From: a virus
Lineage: Duplodnaviria > Heunggongvirae > Uroviricota > Caudoviricetes
Direction: 5' to 3' (one strand)
Length of the DNA: 9,734 nucleotides
Virus record (IMG/VR): IMGVR_UViG_2681813004_000016
Location: 1 to 9,734 of that record
Positions 1,403-7,220 of the stretch are shown here, piece by piece. Position numbers and translations under genes: made by a program. Below the pieces are notes generated by a model. That model did not search any database and was not told the DNA's origin. It was given only the letters and a program-made list of their open reading frames with translations. Position 1 is the first letter of the stretch, and each line of letters opens with the position of its first letter.

Positions 1403-2569
1403 TCAGGCCTTATGGTGGAAATAATCACTCAGGCGGGAAAACATGCTGCCTTCCCCGACAGATTCCAGGGTAACCAGCGGCCAGTGCGCCACCTGTTTAT
1501 CACGGTCGTAAAGTTCAATTTCCCCTACCCGCTGATGGGCGCTAATTGGCGCGGTGAGTTCTTTACCATCAAGGGTATATTTGGCTTTGATATGTGGAAT
1601 TTCGGCTTTCGGTAGCACCATCCAGAACTCTTGTTCCGTTCCCAGAGCGATATTTTCTTTATCACCATACCAGATGCGTTCCGTACCGACCTTTTTCCCA
1701 CGGTGCAAAATTTGCACCGTAGTAAAGTTTTGTTGCCCCCAACGCAGTAATTTTCTTGCCTCTTCCTCACGACCTTTTGCACTGTCAGCACCCATTACCA
1801 CTGCAATGAGGCGACGCTGCCCGTCTACAGCCGAAGCAATGAGATTAAACCCAGCACCAGAAGTATGACCCGTTTTCAGGCCGTCAACATTCATGGTTTT
1901 ATCCCACAATAACCCGTTACGGTTTTGCTGGGTGATACCGTTCCAGGTGAGGCTTTTCTCACTGTACATATGATAAAACTCGGGCTCGCCGTGGATGATA
2001 GCGCGAGAAAGCACAGCTAAATCATAAGCCGAGCTATGCTGGCCAGGTGCATCCAGACCATGCACTGTTTCAAAATGCGTATCCTTGAGATGCAGCTTCT
2101 CGGCATAGTTGTTCATCATTTCAACAAACTGCCGTTGCCCACCGGCAATATAGTCAGCCAGTGCAACACAAGCGTCATTTCCGGAATCCACAATTAAACC
2201 ACGGCTTAAATCACGTACCGATACGCGATCGCCCTCTTTCAAAAACATCAGTGAAGAACCGACAAACACCGGATTATCTTTCGCCCACGCATCACGCCCC
2301 ACGGTGACAATATCGTCCGGCGTAATGCGATGACTATCGATAGCGCGATCCACGACATAGCCCGTCATCAGCTTTGTCAGGCTGGCGGGATTGCGCTGTT
2401 GATGCTCATTACCCGCGGTGAGAATCTGACCGGTAGTGTAATCCATCAATACCCAGGACCCGGCATGAATCTCTGGAGGTTGAGGTGAAAAAGGGATGTT
2501 TTCCGCCGCAAAACCAGACGATAAATTAAAAACGAACAAAGAAGCAGCAATAATAAGACGGCGTTTCAA
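1403..2569 (-). CDS. dacD: D-alanyl-D-alanine carboxypeptidase DacD (PBP6b)
   Basis: ORF translation ...RRLIIAASLFVFNLSSGFAAENIPFSPQPP... with SxxK (ASLTK), SGN and KTG motifs, ending DYFHHKA. Matches E. coli DacD. The ORF track starts at TTG 2573-2575 (390 aa); the second TTG at 2567-2569 has GAGG 6-7 nt upstream and gives the 388-aa length recalled for DacD, so I call 2569 as the start. Confidence 0.93.
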   Translation of the reverse strand: MKRRLIIAASLFVFNLSSGFAAENIPFSPQPPEIHAGSWVLMDYTTGQILTAGNEHQQRNPASLTKLMTGYVVDRAIDSHRITPDDIVTVGRDAWAKDNPVFVGSSLMFLKEGDRVSVRDLSRGLIVDSGNDACVALADYIAGGQRQFVEMMNNYAEKLHLKDTHFETVHGLDAPGQHSSAYDLAVLSRAIIHGEPEFYHMYSEKSLTWNGITQQNRNGLLWDKTMNVDGLKTGHTSGAGFNLIASAVDGQRRLIAVVMGADSAKGREEEARKLLRWGQQNFTTVQILHRGKKVGTERIWYGDKENIALGTEQEFWMVLPKAEIPHIKAKYTLDGKELTAPISAHQRVGEIELYDRDKQVAHWPLVTLESVGEGSMFSRLSDYFHHKA

Positions 2570-2777
2570 CAGCAAACCCTCAGGTGTTTCAAATAGCTGT
2601 TCTTTTTACGGAAATACTTATGAACTGGCTGGAATAAAGTGCAAGAAAATGTGACTACTATCTCATTTTTATCTGACATGAACTGTTGCCACTCGCTGCC
2701 AAATTGTCGCGCTAAAGCTGATTAGCACGGTGATATTTGATACTCTGGCAGACAGCAGAAATAACGGATTTAACCTA

Positions 2778-2840
2778 ATGATGAATGACGGTAAGCAACA
2801 ATCTACCTTTTTGTTTCACGATTACGCGCAACACCCCTGA
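2778..2840 (+). pseudogene. sbcB: Exonuclease I (sbcB) 5' remnant: first 16 native codons, then foreign sequence and stop
   Basis: ATG ATG AAT GAC GGT AAG CAA CAA TCT ACC TTT TTG TTT CAC GAT TAC translates MMNDGKQQSTFLFHDY, the SbcB N-terminus as recalled (native continues ETFGTHPALDRP...). Here it continues AQHP then TGA at 2838-2840. Divergent from dacD as in K-12. Homology breaks at about 2825/2826. Confidence 0.75.
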
Positions 2841-2912
2841 GAACCGCCATGAACAAGGGTTTCATGATTTGTGATTTTAGTTTGGTACGCAATTTGGTAC
2901 ACAACACAATTT

Positions 2913-3158
2913 TCACTTCAGCGGGTAGTCATCAAACTCACCATAACGAGCAGCGTTAATGATGATTGGTTGCGAAACAGGAACGTGAGAACCGTCTTCG
3001 TTCTCTACATAAACCTGAATCTGGTTTTCAGGATTTACCGGGTCAGTGTCAATTTTTCCGATATAAATTTTGCCATTGGCTACGGCTTTAAAAGAACGCG
3101 CCATAGTGAAGAGTTGCGAAGGCATGCTTACCACAACATTGGCTGTAATGTCTGTCAT
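2913..3158 (-). pseudogene. P22-type tailspike (gp9) N-terminal head-binding-domain fragment, truncated after about 70 codons
   Basis: [70 protein letters not shown] matches the P22 tailspike N-terminus as recalled ([74 protein letters not shown]...). It then diverges to [11 protein letters not shown] and stops. Lies downstream of ant on the same strand, as in P22. Confidence 0.7.
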
Positions 3159-3216
3159 TTAATTTGCTCCAGATACAAGGAATCGCCGCAGCATGGCTAC
3201 GGTGAATTTTGGGCAT

Positions 3217-3239
3217 AAAAAAACCCAGCCGAAGCTGGG
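3217..3239 (-). terminator. Rho-independent terminator downstream of ant
   Basis: Plus strand reads aaaaaaa-CCCAGC-cgaa-GCTGGG; on the minus strand this is a GC stem with a 4-nt loop followed by UUUUUUU, sitting 20 nt after the ant stop codon. Confidence 0.75.
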
Positions 3240-3258
3240 TCGTTGCGTTGGTTATCTG

Positions 3259-4173
3259 TCAGTAGTTATGTACTGAAGGAGGTAATTCTTTATTCTTAAG
3301 TCTCATCCATGCGGAAAGATTCGTTGGTCCGTCTGGCTCATTGATATCAACATCTCGTGTGTGGTTTATTAAAACGTCTCTCGCCATTCCAATAACATAC
3401 GAGAACTCATGACCGTAGTCGTAGCATCTGCAGGAATAGTTCGATTGAATTTGCTTTAGCGCCGGATACAGTTCGCGGAATAATGCCTGTGAGCGGTTGG
3501 CATAATCCCATAACCATACAAGACTGTCTGTTTCTTTTGCGGAAAGCCCGTTGAGCTTCTTCTCTTGTTTGCCGATTAACTCTCCTTCAAGCGGAACGCG
3601 AGCAGCAAGTGACAGAGCTTCGGTAAACTGCTCCTCGCTGATTTCTTTATATGAACACCCAAAATGAGATTTCAGTGACGACCACATGGTGATCATCGCC
3701 TTCGCCTGTTTTTCTTTTGGCAGAGACTGACCGCGACTCATGACGAGTTGTTTAATGGCTTCCTGCTGCTCTTTGGTTATTTTGCCCGGCAACGCCTTTT
3801 TAGCTTTCGGTGTATTTCCGTAAGACCCCGTTTTACGAATGGATGGCAAAACTTCAGCTGTCACCCATTTGCGGAATTTGTGCGGGACTGAACCTTTATT
3901 GACGGCATCACGGCAGCGCAGAACCAATGTATACATACCTGATTCGCTCACAATGCTTAAATTCTGCTCACCGCCAAGGGTGTAACTTAAAGTTACTCCC
4001 TTCTCATCGTCATCAAGTGCAGTAAGCGCCTTGCGTGAGTTAGTCAGAGTTAAAGCATCACAAACATCTTTTGCTACAAACCACGGCGCACCGCACTTGT
4101 TGATGACGCGGATTTCACTGTCGCCGAATTTGAAGATGGTGAAATCGTTTTGTGCCTTTGCTATACTTTTCAT
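3259..4173 (-). CDS. ant: Phage antirepressor Ant (Bro-N/KilA-N-like N-terminal domain)
   Basis: 304-aa ORF. N-terminus [30 protein letters not shown] is a typical Bro-N-type antirepressor motif. Sits immediately downstream of an Arc-like gene and opposite a divergent Mnt-like gene, the P22 immI arrangement. Confidence 0.85.
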
Positions 4174-4246
4174 GTCAATATTTCCCGATCAGATTTGTTG
4201 ATGTAGAAGCCTCGCCAGTTCCCGCTGTCGGGGCTTCGTTATTTTT
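4174..4246 (+). ncRNA. Predicted sar-like antisense RNA covering the ant RBS and start region
   Basis: Candidate plus-strand promoter inside the ant 5' codons: -35 GTGAAA 4139-4144, 17-nt spacer, -10 TATACT 4162-4167, putting the start at about 4174. Plus-strand hairpin GAAGCC(4206-4211)/GGCTTC(4232-4237) with inner CCCG/CGGG stem, followed by TTATTTTT (4239-4246). Predicted RNA is about 70 nt and antisense to the ant RBS, as described for P22 sar. Confidence 0.4.
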
Positions 4247-4406
4247 AGAGAGCATTCCGCATTTTCTCCCGGTACTTCAACCACCAAGCAAGTCCCTGAA
4301 CCAACACTGAGTTTTCTGACATCCCCTCTTCCTTAGCGATGCGTTTCACCTCCTCCTTAAAACGGTACGGATACCGAAGAGTTGTCTTCACTTCATTCTT
4401 TTCCAT
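4245..4406 (-). CDS. arc: Arc-like ribbon-helix-helix repressor (53 aa)
   Basis: Not in the ORF track (under 60 aa). Minus strand ATG 4404-4406 to TAA 4245-4247 translates MEKNEVKTTLRYPYRFKEEVKRIAKEEGMSENSVLVQGLAWWLKYREKMRNAL. Same size and RHH pattern as P22 Arc (recalled ...PQFNLRWPREVLDLVRKVAEENGRSVNSEIYQRVMESF...). AGGAG RBS 7 nt upstream; directly upstream of ant. Confidence 0.7.
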   Translation of the reverse strand: MEKNEVKTTLRYPYRFKEEVKRIAKEEGMSENSVLVQGLAWWLKYREKMRNAL

Positions 4407-4427
4407 TGATCACTCCTTTTTACGTAA

Positions 4428-4489
4428 TGGCATTATGCCTTGAAAGCAATATGCCATCATTGAATATAAATAGCAATATGCCATCATTG
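4428..4489. promoter_or_regulatory. immI operator/promoter region: 11-bp palindrome plus two perfect 18-bp direct repeats between divergent arc-like and mnt-like genes
   Basis: Palindrome GGCATtATGCC at 4429-4439. Direct repeats AGCAATATGCCATCATTG at 4445-4462 and 4472-4489, 27 bp apart. The 7-mer ATGCCAT (reverse complement ATGGCAT) occurs three times. A candidate plus-strand promoter overlaps them (-35 TTGAAA 4440-4445, -10 TATAAA 4465-4470). Confidence 0.45.
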
Positions 4490-4508
4490 TTTTTTTTGAG
4501 GTGATGTT

Positions 4509-4829
4509 ATGGCTGAAAAGCAGGTTAAAGATTACGAAAAGTTTGTTGTGCGTTTCCCTGACGGGATGAGGGACGCGATTGCGGAGAGAGCCAAACGAAA
4601 CGGGCGCTCTATGAACTCAGAGATTGTGCAGATACTGGAAGATGCCTTGAATGCAGAAAATACTCTTGGGGAAATAGCAGACAAAATCAACAGCGTCTCG
4701 GTTCCGCTAAATGTTGATGCGCTAGTTCAACTTCAAGCCCAGGTTATCGCCATGCAAAAAGAAATACAGGAAAAGTTCAGAGAGCAGAACGAAAAGTTGA
4801 GAGAACTACTAAATAAAAAACCCACCTGA
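4509..4829 (+). CDS. mnt: Mnt-like ribbon-helix-helix repressor with C-terminal coiled coil (106 aa)
   Basis: N-terminus MAEKQVKDYEKFVVRFPDGMRDAIAERAKRNGRSMNSEIVQILEDAL carries the Arc/Mnt signature NGRSMNSE; C-terminal half is heptad-rich. GAGGTGA RBS upstream of ATG 4509. Divergent from arc-ant. Confidence 0.7.
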   Translation: MAEKQVKDYEKFVVRFPDGMRDAIAERAKRNGRSMNSEIVQILEDALNAENTLGEIADKINSVSVPLNVDALVQLQAQVIAMQKEIQEKFREQNEKLRELLNKKPT

Positions 4830-4836
4830 CGGTGGG
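4811..4836 (-). terminator. Rho-independent terminator downstream of tail gene L (overlaps the 3' end of the mnt-like gene)
   Basis: Plus strand aaataaaaaa-CCCACC-tgac-GGTGGG; on the minus strand the stem is followed by UUUUUUAUUU, 10 nt after the L stop codon (4846-4848). The mnt-like stop TGA (4827-4829) lies in the hairpin loop. Confidence 0.6.
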
Positions 4837-4845
4837 CATAATCCA

Positions 4846-5544
4846 TTACTGCGAAAGTTTGTTAATGGAAAGGAAGCCGCCAAAGTTGCCGACGTTATTG
4901 CGAAACTTACAGCCACTCAGGCATTTGCTGCATTTATCCTTCGTGATATCGGACGTTGGCTGGTCATATTCATCCGCGACAGCCGGACCGTGATAACCGC
5001 ACTCATCGCCGCGATAGGTCCAGGTGCAGGTGTTGGCCAGCATGATACGTCCCGGAAAAACAGCGCCATCTGTTTCCGTCGGCGTGGACAGTACAAAGGA
5101 GGCACTCACCGCGCTCAGTTCGCTGCACTGCTCGATGCGCCAGCGGCTGATCACCTCCTGCTCCGGATCGGCGTCACTGTTTCCGTTAACGAAGTTCACC
5201 GCATCCAGAAAACGGGCGTAAACCTTACGCCGGACCACCGTTCCGCCGACCAGACTCTGCATATCTTCCACCATACCGGTGACCATGCCGTGCAGGTTAG
5301 AAACCGTCAGTGTCGGACGGGCAGCACTGCCCTTGCCGTTCAGTTCAAATCCCGTCCCCTGAATGGGATACGCCTGATACTGTCGCCCCTGCCAGGTGAC
5401 CGGCTCACCTTTTTCGTTCTGCTCATTACAGAAAAAATAACGTTCTCCACCGACCTCTGTCAGGTCGATTTCCCAGAGCACCACGCTGGCAGACTGCTCC
5501 GCACGGGTGCATTCATTCAGTGTTTCCTGCCGGATATCCTGCAT
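4846..5544 (-). CDS. L: Lambda-type minor tail protein L
   Basis: 232-aa ORF MQDIRQETLNECTRAEQSASVVLWEIDLTEVGGERYFFCNEQNEKGEPVTWQGRQYQ...FGGFLSINKLSQ matches phage lambda gpL in sequence and length as recalled. Its start overlaps the M stop (ATGA). Confidence 0.95.
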   Translation of the reverse strand: MQDIRQETLNECTRAEQSASVVLWEIDLTEVGGERYFFCNEQNEKGEPVTWQGRQYQAYPIQGTGFELNGKGSAARPTLTVSNLHGMVTGMVEDMQSLVGGTVVRRKVYARFLDAVNFVNGNSDADPEQEVISRWRIEQCSELSAVSASFVLSTPTETDGAVFPGRIMLANTCTWTYRGDECGYHGPAVADEYDQPTSDITKDKCSKCLSGCKFRNNVGNFGGFLSINKLSQ

Positions 5545-5873
5545 CAGTTCACCACCTGTTTAAACTCTGCGCTGAACTCAACACGCAACATACTGACCTG
5601 CGACGACCATTTTGCGCAGGTCACCTTTATCTGCCTGTAACCATAAGGCGGCGTCCACAGAAAGGCCTTCCAGCCCCCGTGCTCAGCCAGAAACGACTCC
5701 AGCGCCGTGGCCTCCTCACGGGAGACAGACAGCGTCACGCTGTACGTTTTCAGGTCAGCGTTCAGCCCGGCAGGCGCACGCTGGGAATAGCCATCACCAA
5801 AGCGCACCTCCCTGACGGAAGGGGCCGATGTCACATCCATACCGGGTTTCACTTTCCAGCGGAAGGTTTTCAT
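5544..5873 (-). CDS. M: Lambda-type minor tail protein M
   Basis: 109-aa ORF MKTFRWKVKPGMDV...WTPPYGYRQIKVTCAKWSSQVSMLRVEFSAEFKQVVN matches lambda gpM as recalled; H-M-L order and overlaps as in lambda. Confidence 0.95.
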   Translation of the reverse strand: MKTFRWKVKPGMDVTSAPSVREVRFGDGYSQRAPAGLNADLKTYSVTLSVSREEATALESFLAEHGGWKAFLWTPPYGYRQIKVTCAKWSSQVSMLRVEFSAEFKQVVN

Positions 5874-6247
5874 CGTCCACCTCCGGAGAACAGGCCACCA
5901 TCACGCATCTGTGTCTGAATTTCATCACGGGCACCCTTGCGGGCCATGTCATACACCGCCTTCAGAGCAGCCGGACCTATCTGCCCGTTCGTGCCGTCGT
6001 TGTTAATCACCACATGGTTATTCTGCTCAAACGTCCCGGACGCCTGCGACCGGCTGTCTGCCATGCTGCCCGGTGTACCGACATAACCGCCGGTGGCATA
6101 GCCGCGCATCAGCCGGTAAAGATTCCCCACGCCAATCCGGCTGGTTGCCTCCTTCGTGAAGACAAACTCACCACGGTGAACAATCCCCGCTGGCTCATAT
6201 TTGCCGCCGGTTCCCGTAAATCCTCCGGTTGCAAAATGGAATTTCGC
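5870..6247 (-). pseudogene. H: Tape-measure protein H, C-terminal fragment (about 125 codons), 5'-truncated at the IS903 junction
   Basis: C-terminal translation ...GGFTGTGGKYEPAGIVHRGEFVFTKEATSRIGVGNLYRLMRGYATGGYVGTPG...MRDGGLFSGGGR matches the lambda gpH C-terminus as recalled. Upstream of about 6247 the frame reads IS903-derived sequence, so the first about 35 residues of the 160-aa track ORF are not H. Confidence 0.85.
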
Positions 6248-6779
6248 CGCAGACAACTTCATGTGTGTTGCTGTCAACAGCAAGATGCAACTTTCGCCAG
6301 ATACGACGGCGCTCTTTGCCGTGCTTTCTGACTTTCCATTCGCCTTCACCAAAGACCTTCAGCCCGGTGGAATCAATCACCAGGTGTGCGATTTCACCCC
6401 GGGTGGACGTTTTGAAACTGACATTAACCGACTTTGCCCGCTTACTGACACTGGTGTAATCCGGGCAGCGCAACGGAACGTTCATCAGGGCAAAAATGGA
6501 ATCAATAAAACCCTGCGCAGCCCGCAGGGTCAGCCGGAATACGCGTTTAATCACCAGAACGGTGGTGATGGCGAGATCAGAATAGCGCTGGGGCCTTCCT
6601 CGTGATGAAGGCGTTGCCGACTCATACCAGGCCTGAATCGCCTCATCATCCAGCCAGAAAGTGAGGGAGCCACGGTTGATGAGAGCTTTGTTGTAGGTGG
6701 ACCAGTTGGTGATTCTGAACTTTTGCTTTGCCACGGAATGGTCTGTGTTGTCGGGAGGATGCGTGATCTGATCCTTCAA
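6248..6779 (-). pseudogene. IS903-family transposase, N-terminal about 177 codons, 3'-truncated (track ORF 6195-6779 reads on into H-derived DNA)
   Basis: Transposase similarity runs from the TTG start at 6777-6779 to ...LAVDSNTHEVVC. The last 17 residues of the track ORF (GEIPFCNRRIYGNRRQI) are out-of-frame readthrough of tape-measure DNA. Confidence 0.85.
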
Positions 6780-6811
6780 CTCAGCAAAAGTTCGATTTAT
6801 TCAACAAAGCC
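6248..6811 (-). mobile_element. Truncated IS903-family insertion sequence (IS5 family): left inverted repeat plus 5' part of the transposase gene only
   Basis: Plus-strand 6793-6811 cgatttattcaacaaagcc is the reverse complement of the IS903 terminal inverted repeat GGCTTTGTTGAATAAATCG as recalled. The adjacent ORF encodes ...KQKFRITNWSTYNKALINRGSLTFWLDDEAIQAWYESATPSSRGRPQRYSDLAITTV..., the IS903/IS102 transposase N-terminus. Homology ends at about 6248, where lambda H sequence begins, so only about 564 bp of a roughly 1 kb IS remain. Confidence 0.9.
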
Positions 6812-7220
6812 CCTTAGAGCTAATTTCAGAACCACCAACACCCTCAATATAGTTTGATCTCCATGGTGACTCTTCGTGTGTCATGTTCCTCAGTTTCCAG
6901 GCAGAAAATTGCCCAAAAACATCCCAGACTTCTTCTAATAACTCTAACTGTTCTTCGCTGAATTTTTCAGCATCAAAAGACTCTGGAGAAGGGATAGCGC
7001 CATTACCATATTGTTTATAACGGCGATAAAGCTCAGGGACAACAGGGCCATGCATCCAAGCTTCCATCTTATTCTGAAAAAGAGGCTCGCCAAGCAACGC
7101 CAATGAAAAACCCTGAGCATAGTAAACAAGCTTTTGTAATTTTAAATTAGAGATTGTGTCACCGCTATCCTCGTCACACCGCGACAGGAAGTAGTCGGCG
7201 ACATCAAAACAAGTAAGCAT
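6801..7220 (-). CDS. Panacea / SocA-like (DUF4065) antitoxin-domain protein, 3' end clipped by the IS903 insertion
   Basis: MLTCFDVADYFLSRCDEDSGDTISNLKLQKLVYYAQGFSLALLGEPLFQNKMEAWMHGPVVPELYRRYKQYG... fits the SocA/Panacea pattern (hLKLQKLLYhAQGh...GEPLh...hEAWhHGPVhP.LY). Likely start is ATG 7218-7220 (GGAGG 7 nt upstream); the track used GTG at 7226. The last two codons and the stop (6801-6809) are IS903 sequence, so the native C-terminus is lost. Confidence 0.6.
   Translation of the reverse strand: MLTCFDVADYFLSRCDEDSGDTISNLKLQKLVYYAQGFSLALLGEPLFQNKMEAWMHGPVVPELYRRYKQYGNGAIPSPESFDAEKFSEEQLELLEEVWDVFGQFSAWKLRNMTHEESPWRSNYIEGVGGSEISSKGLC

Follow-up and report, generated by a model that had tools for sequence, protein, structure and literature searches.

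A prophage junction of attachment type 2851 at the 5' end of sbcB

The exonuclease I (ExoI) gene sbcB is split after its first 49 nt by the integrase-distal junction of a prophage in the stretch of DNA analysed here, hereafter the window, which represents the complete 9734-bp contig AOTC01000257.1 of draft assembly GCA_001447405.1. The reading that we favour, with a probability of roughly 0.9, is that this junction was left by a phage that has a tyrosine integrase and uses the 'phage 2851' type of attachment site, that the far end of the insertion rebuilds sbcB, and that what remains of the phage is a decayed mosaic.

Host flank, attachment core and phage arm

The chromosome of E. coli K-12 MG1655 is collinear with positions 61-2826 of the window at 97.8% identity, over a stretch that runs from part of yeeA through sbmC, dacD and the region between dacD and sbcB to nucleotide 49 of sbcB. 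All 49 of the sbcB nucleotides (2778-2826), i.e., sbcB codons 1-16 and the first base of codon 17, match K-12, while beyond them K-12 reads AAACCTTTGG and the window reads CGCAACACCC. The breakpoint can be set at 2826/2827, because the K-12 alignment ends there and the 49 nt that precede it are identical. The original prediction, which had placed an att-type junction at about 2826 and considered the dacD-sbcB divergent region and the first 16 sbcB codons to be native, is therefore exact as to position and is supported as to the flank, the intergenic region differing from K-12 by few SNPs and the codons not at all.

The 20-codon ORF that spans the breakpoint (2778-2840) translates as MMNDGKQQSTFLFHDYAQHP*. 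Past the breakpoint the sbcB frame reads AQHP-stop, in agreement with the earlier reading of the sequence, the stop codon being the TGA at 2838-2840. Alignment with K-12, which had been proposed as the check on the origin of this ORF, shows it to be derived from sbcB, with 49 of 49 native nucleotides identical. The 20-residue remnant includes Asp15, while Glu17 and the rest of the enzyme are absent; it is the discarded native 5' end of sbcB, and in annotation it would be better labelled an att-site remnant than a gene. The region 2570-2777 retains any native sbcB promoter, now parted from the body of the gene. The features of the window are collected in Table 1.

Table 1. Features on either side of the sbcB junction (window coordinates)
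Feature	Position	Strand	Basis
dacD (penicillin-binding protein 6b), native chromosomal neighbour	1403..2569	-	annotated in matching genomes; 388-aa Peptidase_S11 gene call
Native dacD-sbcB divergent intergenic region	2570..2777	.	K-12 alignment, few SNPs
Displaced sbcB 5' end, 16 native codons then AQHP-stop into phage DNA	2778..2840	+	translation, K-12 alignment
13-bp att core TTTCACGATTACG	2814..2826	+	single exact match in window; invariant in nine-sequence alignment
Tail-side (integrase-distal) arm of type-2851 attP	2827..2964	.	match to phage records, nine-sequence alignment
Two tandem TTGGTAC(G/A)C repeats, putative arm-type integrase-binding sites	2882..2902	+	2 matches vs 0.17 expected by chance
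81-aa remnant: P22-type tailspike head-binding domain and last ~17 codons of UmuD/HumD-like gene	2913..3158	-	Pfam Head_binding E = 8.7e-40
Antirepressor (Bro-N + P22_AR_C), first complete prophage gene inside the junction	3259..4173	-	Pfam, gene call
Arc/Mnt-like gene	4245-4406	-	gene call, Pfam
Arc/Mnt-like gene	4509-4829	+	gene call, Pfam
Lambda-type minor tail genes L and M and 3' end of tape-measure gene (H')	4846-6250	-	
IS5-family transposase fragment	~6250-6812	-	Pfam DDE_Tnp_1_5
SocA/Panacea gene	6801-7226	-	
P22 gp16 fragment	7925-8278	-	
NleG-family type III secretion effector gene	8386-9033	-	

The last 13 bp before the breakpoint, TTTCACGATTACG, are common to attB, attP and both junctions, and code for Phe13-His14-Asp15-Tyr16 and the first base of Glu17. 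This core is the reverse complement of the published core CGTAATCGTGAAA, the attP core of phages 2851 and Sf101 (PMC4159516). Furthermore, the same 13 bp are annotated as 'attP; prophage attachment site (type 2851)' in the record of phage HK544 and as 'duplication due to insertion of stx2c phage' in that of phage 1717. A search of the 9,734-nt window for a second copy of the core, as expected of a tandem or internal att site, returned none.

The DNA adjoining the core on its phage side is 98.6% identical over 146 nt (2800-2945) to Stx2c and Stx1a phage records, including 1717 and Stx2_EH1904, about 95.8-96.6% identical to HK544, mEp234 and HK140 and to the P22-like phages E212, EC.P3 and APC_JM3.2, and 87.7% identical to Sf101. 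Its limit is set by the S5 prophage and phage 1717, which have the arm in common only as far as 2964. A nine-sequence alignment displays the exchange in full: attP in five free phages consists of the integrase-side arm, the core and the arm of the window, while the empty site of K-12 consists of the left flank of the window, the core and the right flank of the far junction. The attP of HK544 has (T/C)TGGTAC(A/G)C five times in the same orientation, with three of the copies in the integrase-side arm and the other two in the tail-side arm, and the two repeats of the window are, on sequence grounds, likely arm-type sites at which an integrase would bind.

The window thus holds the type-2851 core at the breakpoint, the sbcB 5' end as host flank and an attP arm as phage flank. 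The claim of an att-type junction is upheld; positions 2814-2964 are the integrase-distal junction, or attR by lambda convention.

The far junction and the state of sbcB

In the proposed history, the phage, by means of a tyrosine integrase, would have recombined at the 13-bp type-2851 core within sbcB codons 13-17, leaving 2814-2964 as the integrase-distal product. The reciprocal junction would adjoin the integrase gene, an arrangement that is seen in three related genomes and is presumed for the genome of the window. Here the sbcB-like 5' end of the other attP arm, MTDTDKQPTFLFHDY, would join in frame to sbcB from codon 17 on, and because of this in-frame join the lysogen would keep a full-length ExoI whose seven N-terminal residues, like the DNA upstream of the gene, would come from the phage.

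The relatives examined for the far junction were S5 (NZ_CP107137.1), Z1323CEC0018, which is the closest complete-genome match to the junction of the window (98.8%), and O157:H7 SS17. In S5, dacD and sbcB are separated by a complete P22-like prophage of ~40 kb, whose int gene adjoins sbcB, and the prophage boundaries in Z1323CEC0018 and SS17 are as in S5. All three genomes have a tyrosine integrase gene ~180 bp upstream of, and divergent from, an sbcB that is annotated as intact (1425 bp, 474 aa). The integrase-side arm reads ATG ACA GAC ACA GAT AAA CAA CCT ACC TTC CTC TTT CAC GAT TAC G, with host sequence taking over at codon 17, and so provides a new start codon and N-terminus (ATG and 14 codons) in frame with sbcB; the sequence across this join is ...CAATGACAGACACAGATAAACAACCTACCTTCCTCTTTCACGATTACGAAACCTTTGG. 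The substitute start region is near-invariant among the phages compared, its sole change being D3G in Sf101. In the attP of HK544 (locus L006, 2482-2541) the substitute sbcB start takes the form of a 19-codon ORF, MTDTDKQPTFLFHDYAKHP-stop, which spans the core, and the TGA that ends it is the same one (window 2838-2840) that ends the displaced host stub.

The rebuilt ExoI begins MTDTDKQPTFLFHDYETFG, while the native enzyme begins MMNDGKQQSTFLFHDYETFG. It is 98% identical to K-12 ExoI and retains both Pfam domains, the RNase_T domain starting at residue 12 as compared to residue 13 in native ExoI. Asp15, Glu17 and Asp186 bind metal in the enzyme (PMC3675492); the cut falls between the codons for Asp15 and Glu17, and the DxE motif is restored in the rebuilt gene. 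Given that the core codes for Phe13 to Tyr16 and the first base of Glu17, the phage recombines within the most constrained codons of sbcB. At the DNA level the phage arm detectably resembles the native locus over no more than ~30 nt upstream of the breakpoint; further out, the local alignment score of the arm against the native sbcB upstream region was not above that of shuffled sequences, of which 93 and 142 of 1000 reached the observed value.

The original prediction had made the function of sbcB depend on whether the far end re-supplies an N-terminus and a promoter. The first part is answered by the 474-aa sbcB of the three relatives, while for the second no consensus sigma-70 promoter was found in their 181-bp int-sbcB spacer. 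The same scan of the region upstream of native sbcB was equally negative, and the scan of the rebuilt gene is for that reason uninformative. Expression of the rebuilt sbcB is presumed from its intact ORF and from the prevalence of the arrangement.

Since the far end rebuilds a 474-aa sbcB in the relatives, the description of the gene as cut is physically right but probably misleading as to function: sbcB is most likely split but not inactivated, and it is very probably rebuilt in the genome of the window as well, by extrapolation from these relatives. The alternative is that the far end no longer exists or is damaged, or that the rebuilt gene is silent, and that the host is consequently an ExoI-null (sbcB-like) strain. 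Loss of the far end is conceivable because the prophage of the window is heavily rearranged, its tailspike, tape measure and gp16 genes being truncated and an IS fragment being present; moreover, the far junction lies outside the window, which is the whole draft contig, and a consensus promoter is absent upstream of the rebuilt gene in the relatives. However, Z1323CEC0018 and its sisters, which are 98.7-98.8% identical to the window across the junction and whose tail-side end shows the same decay, have retained int together with an intact sbcB of 474 aa. Furthermore, junctions of the attL type (582) and attR type (572) are nearly equal in number among complete genomes, and the native upstream region lacks a consensus promoter as well, which deprives the negative scan of weight. 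True inactivation of sbcB in this host is accordingly considered unlikely.

A decayed mosaic behind the junction

Next to the junction the prophage is not an intact phage but a degraded mosaic, pieced together from P22-like and lambda-like DNA. Of the complete tailspike, immI region and ejection genes that a P22-like (Lederbergvirus) prophage would carry, in P22 order, at its tail-side end, the window has a head-binding stub, ant, Arc/Mnt and a gp16 fragment, all of them either truncated or broken up by lambda L/M/H' genes and an IS fragment. The 81-aa ORF is a fusion in which the tailspike match starts at ~2943 and the end of the UmuD/HumD-like gene sits in the att arm; compared to S5 it reflects a 2.26-kb deletion, with the joint at ~20-bp imperfect repeats. 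The junction of the S5 prophage is the same one, with 99.2% identity to the window from the chromosomal side up to 2964, and in both S5 and the window a tailspike and an antirepressor gene occupy the tail-side end, but S5 has a complete tailspike within a full 40-kb prophage, whereas the window has the 81-aa stub followed by unrelated lambda-like and IS segments. None of the complete RefSeq E. coli genomes covered at least 80% of positions 2827-9734.

Several further observations were made on this content. An identical 81-aa protein turns up in 154 indexed blocks of public assemblies, and in two contigs (L009 9284-9529; L013 4009-4254) the ORF lies elsewhere in the chromosome, by rsmF/pqiA and not by sbcB. 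The lambda genes L-M-H' directly follow the P22-type ant-arc-mnt block, and many other E. coli genomes, O103:H2 among them, contain the entire ant-arc-mnt-L-M-H' block uninterrupted at 91-96% identity; this recurrence indicates a circulating hybrid module rather than an assembly artefact. On one side the IS5-family fragment cuts the tape-measure gene short, and on the other it borders on the SocA/Panacea gene. The NleG gene, which sits between the P22 gp16 fragment and a lambdoid tail-fibre C-terminus, suggests that the host is an attaching-effacing (LEE-type) E. coli. The two ends of the contig itself fall within yeeA and within a repeated tail-fibre gene.

This content bears on the type of phage involved. 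The statement in the original prediction that sbcB is an integration site for Stx2c-type prophages is corroborated by the records of phages 1717, 2851 and Stx2_EH1904 and by published surveys (PMC8309913; PMC3519850). A Stx2c-type lambdoid converting prophage as the source of the junction would fit both the usual Stx2c site in O157, which is sbcB (PMC8309913; PMC3519850), and the 98.6% identity of the att arm (2800-2945) to Stx2c and Stx1a phage records. The DNA past the arm, however, does not bear this out: 2851/1717-like gene content was sought there and not found, as the similarity to phage 1717 ends at 2964, bar a 230-bp tail-fibre patch, and the next genes are the P22-type tailspike fragment, the antirepressor and Arc/Mnt. 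No stx gene was found within the window. Furthermore, the same att/int module is present in the non-Stx siphoviruses HK544, mEp234 and HK140 and in the P22-like phages Sf101, E212 and APC_JM3.2, and is thus common to morphologically different phages. A Stx2c-type prophage as the source of the junction is therefore very improbable, and the DNA past 2964 is better described as what is left of a P22-type tailspike and antirepressor region.

Occurrence of the site and implications of a rebuilt sbcB

A 200-nt probe centred on the breakpoint was covered to at least 80% in 572 of 5426 complete E. coli genomes (~1 in 10), and the reciprocal (attL-type) probe in 582 of them. The remaining genomes match only the host half of the probe, in an annotated sbcB. 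Of the 5416 records that match the host half, core included, 5040 do so at 99% identity or more, and attB is therefore highly conserved. As the junction is shared by 572 of the 5426 genomes and its phage side matches the attP of free phages, it is not a product of chance. That the breakpoint is an assembly chimera, or an illegitimate deletion endpoint that fell in sbcB by chance, might be suspected from a draft contig with several other abrupt joints, but can in effect be dismissed, given that the break matches the published 13-bp core to the base, the adjoining 138 nt are the attP arm of free phages and the identical junction recurs in the 572 complete genomes.

In PCR surveys of O157, sbcB was occupied in 26.9% of strains, mostly by Stx2c phages, and the site is there termed merely 'occupied' or 'disrupted' (PMC8309913; PMC3519850). 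In strain YP3 (L024 3574-6129) the junction is of this type too but has diverged further (91.6% identity), and there gtrA/gtrB-like O-antigen glucosylation genes (yfdG, yfdH) directly adjoin the sbcB att site; serotype-converting cargo thus occurs at this site in E. coli too, besides Shigella Sf101.

Both the sbcB site with its core and the fact that Stx2c, Sf101 and HK-series phages use it have already been published and annotated, and in this respect the finding is a known one. The type-2851 phages 2851, 1717, Sf101, HK544, mEp234 and HK140 have an identical core at the same host position at the sbcB 5' end, with tail-side arms that are 88-99% identical and the same repeated TTGGTAC motifs as the window; the window differs from them in that it presents one junction only and that its cargo is a decayed P22-like/lambda-like mosaic. 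Intragenic prophage sites at which the phage brings a substitute gene end are established, for example those of phage 21 and e14 in icd. As in icd, integration at sbcB takes place inside a coding gene and a diverged gene end in the phage arm restores the ORF, yet at sbcB the phage replaces the 5' end, and with it the start codon and upstream signals, and not the 3' end. For its expression the rebuilt gene therefore depends on upstream DNA that comes from the phage.

It follows from the three of three relatives that rebuild a full-length ExoI that 'occupied sbcB' should not be taken to mean 'sbcB knocked out', and this bears on the interpretation of lysogen phenotypes. Loss of ExoI is known to alter recombination behaviour. 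It has also been reported that knock-down of sbcB is toxic in some strains, where prophage-borne retron-like systems respond (bioRxiv 10.1101/2020.05.25.114553), and a 2026 preprint reportedly ties SbcB to DRT10 activation.

Through integration, phage DNA arranged divergently with int takes the place of the native promoter region of sbcB, of its 5' UTR and of the codons for the first seven residues. It is tentatively conceivable, though doubtful at present, that lysogeny might re-tune ExoI levels instead of only preserving sbcB, and that the position of the core in catalytic codons is an adaptation for a functional ExoI. If ExoI were indeed re-tuned in lysogens, this may affect RecF-pathway recombination and the defences that sense ExoI, such as retrons and DRT10.
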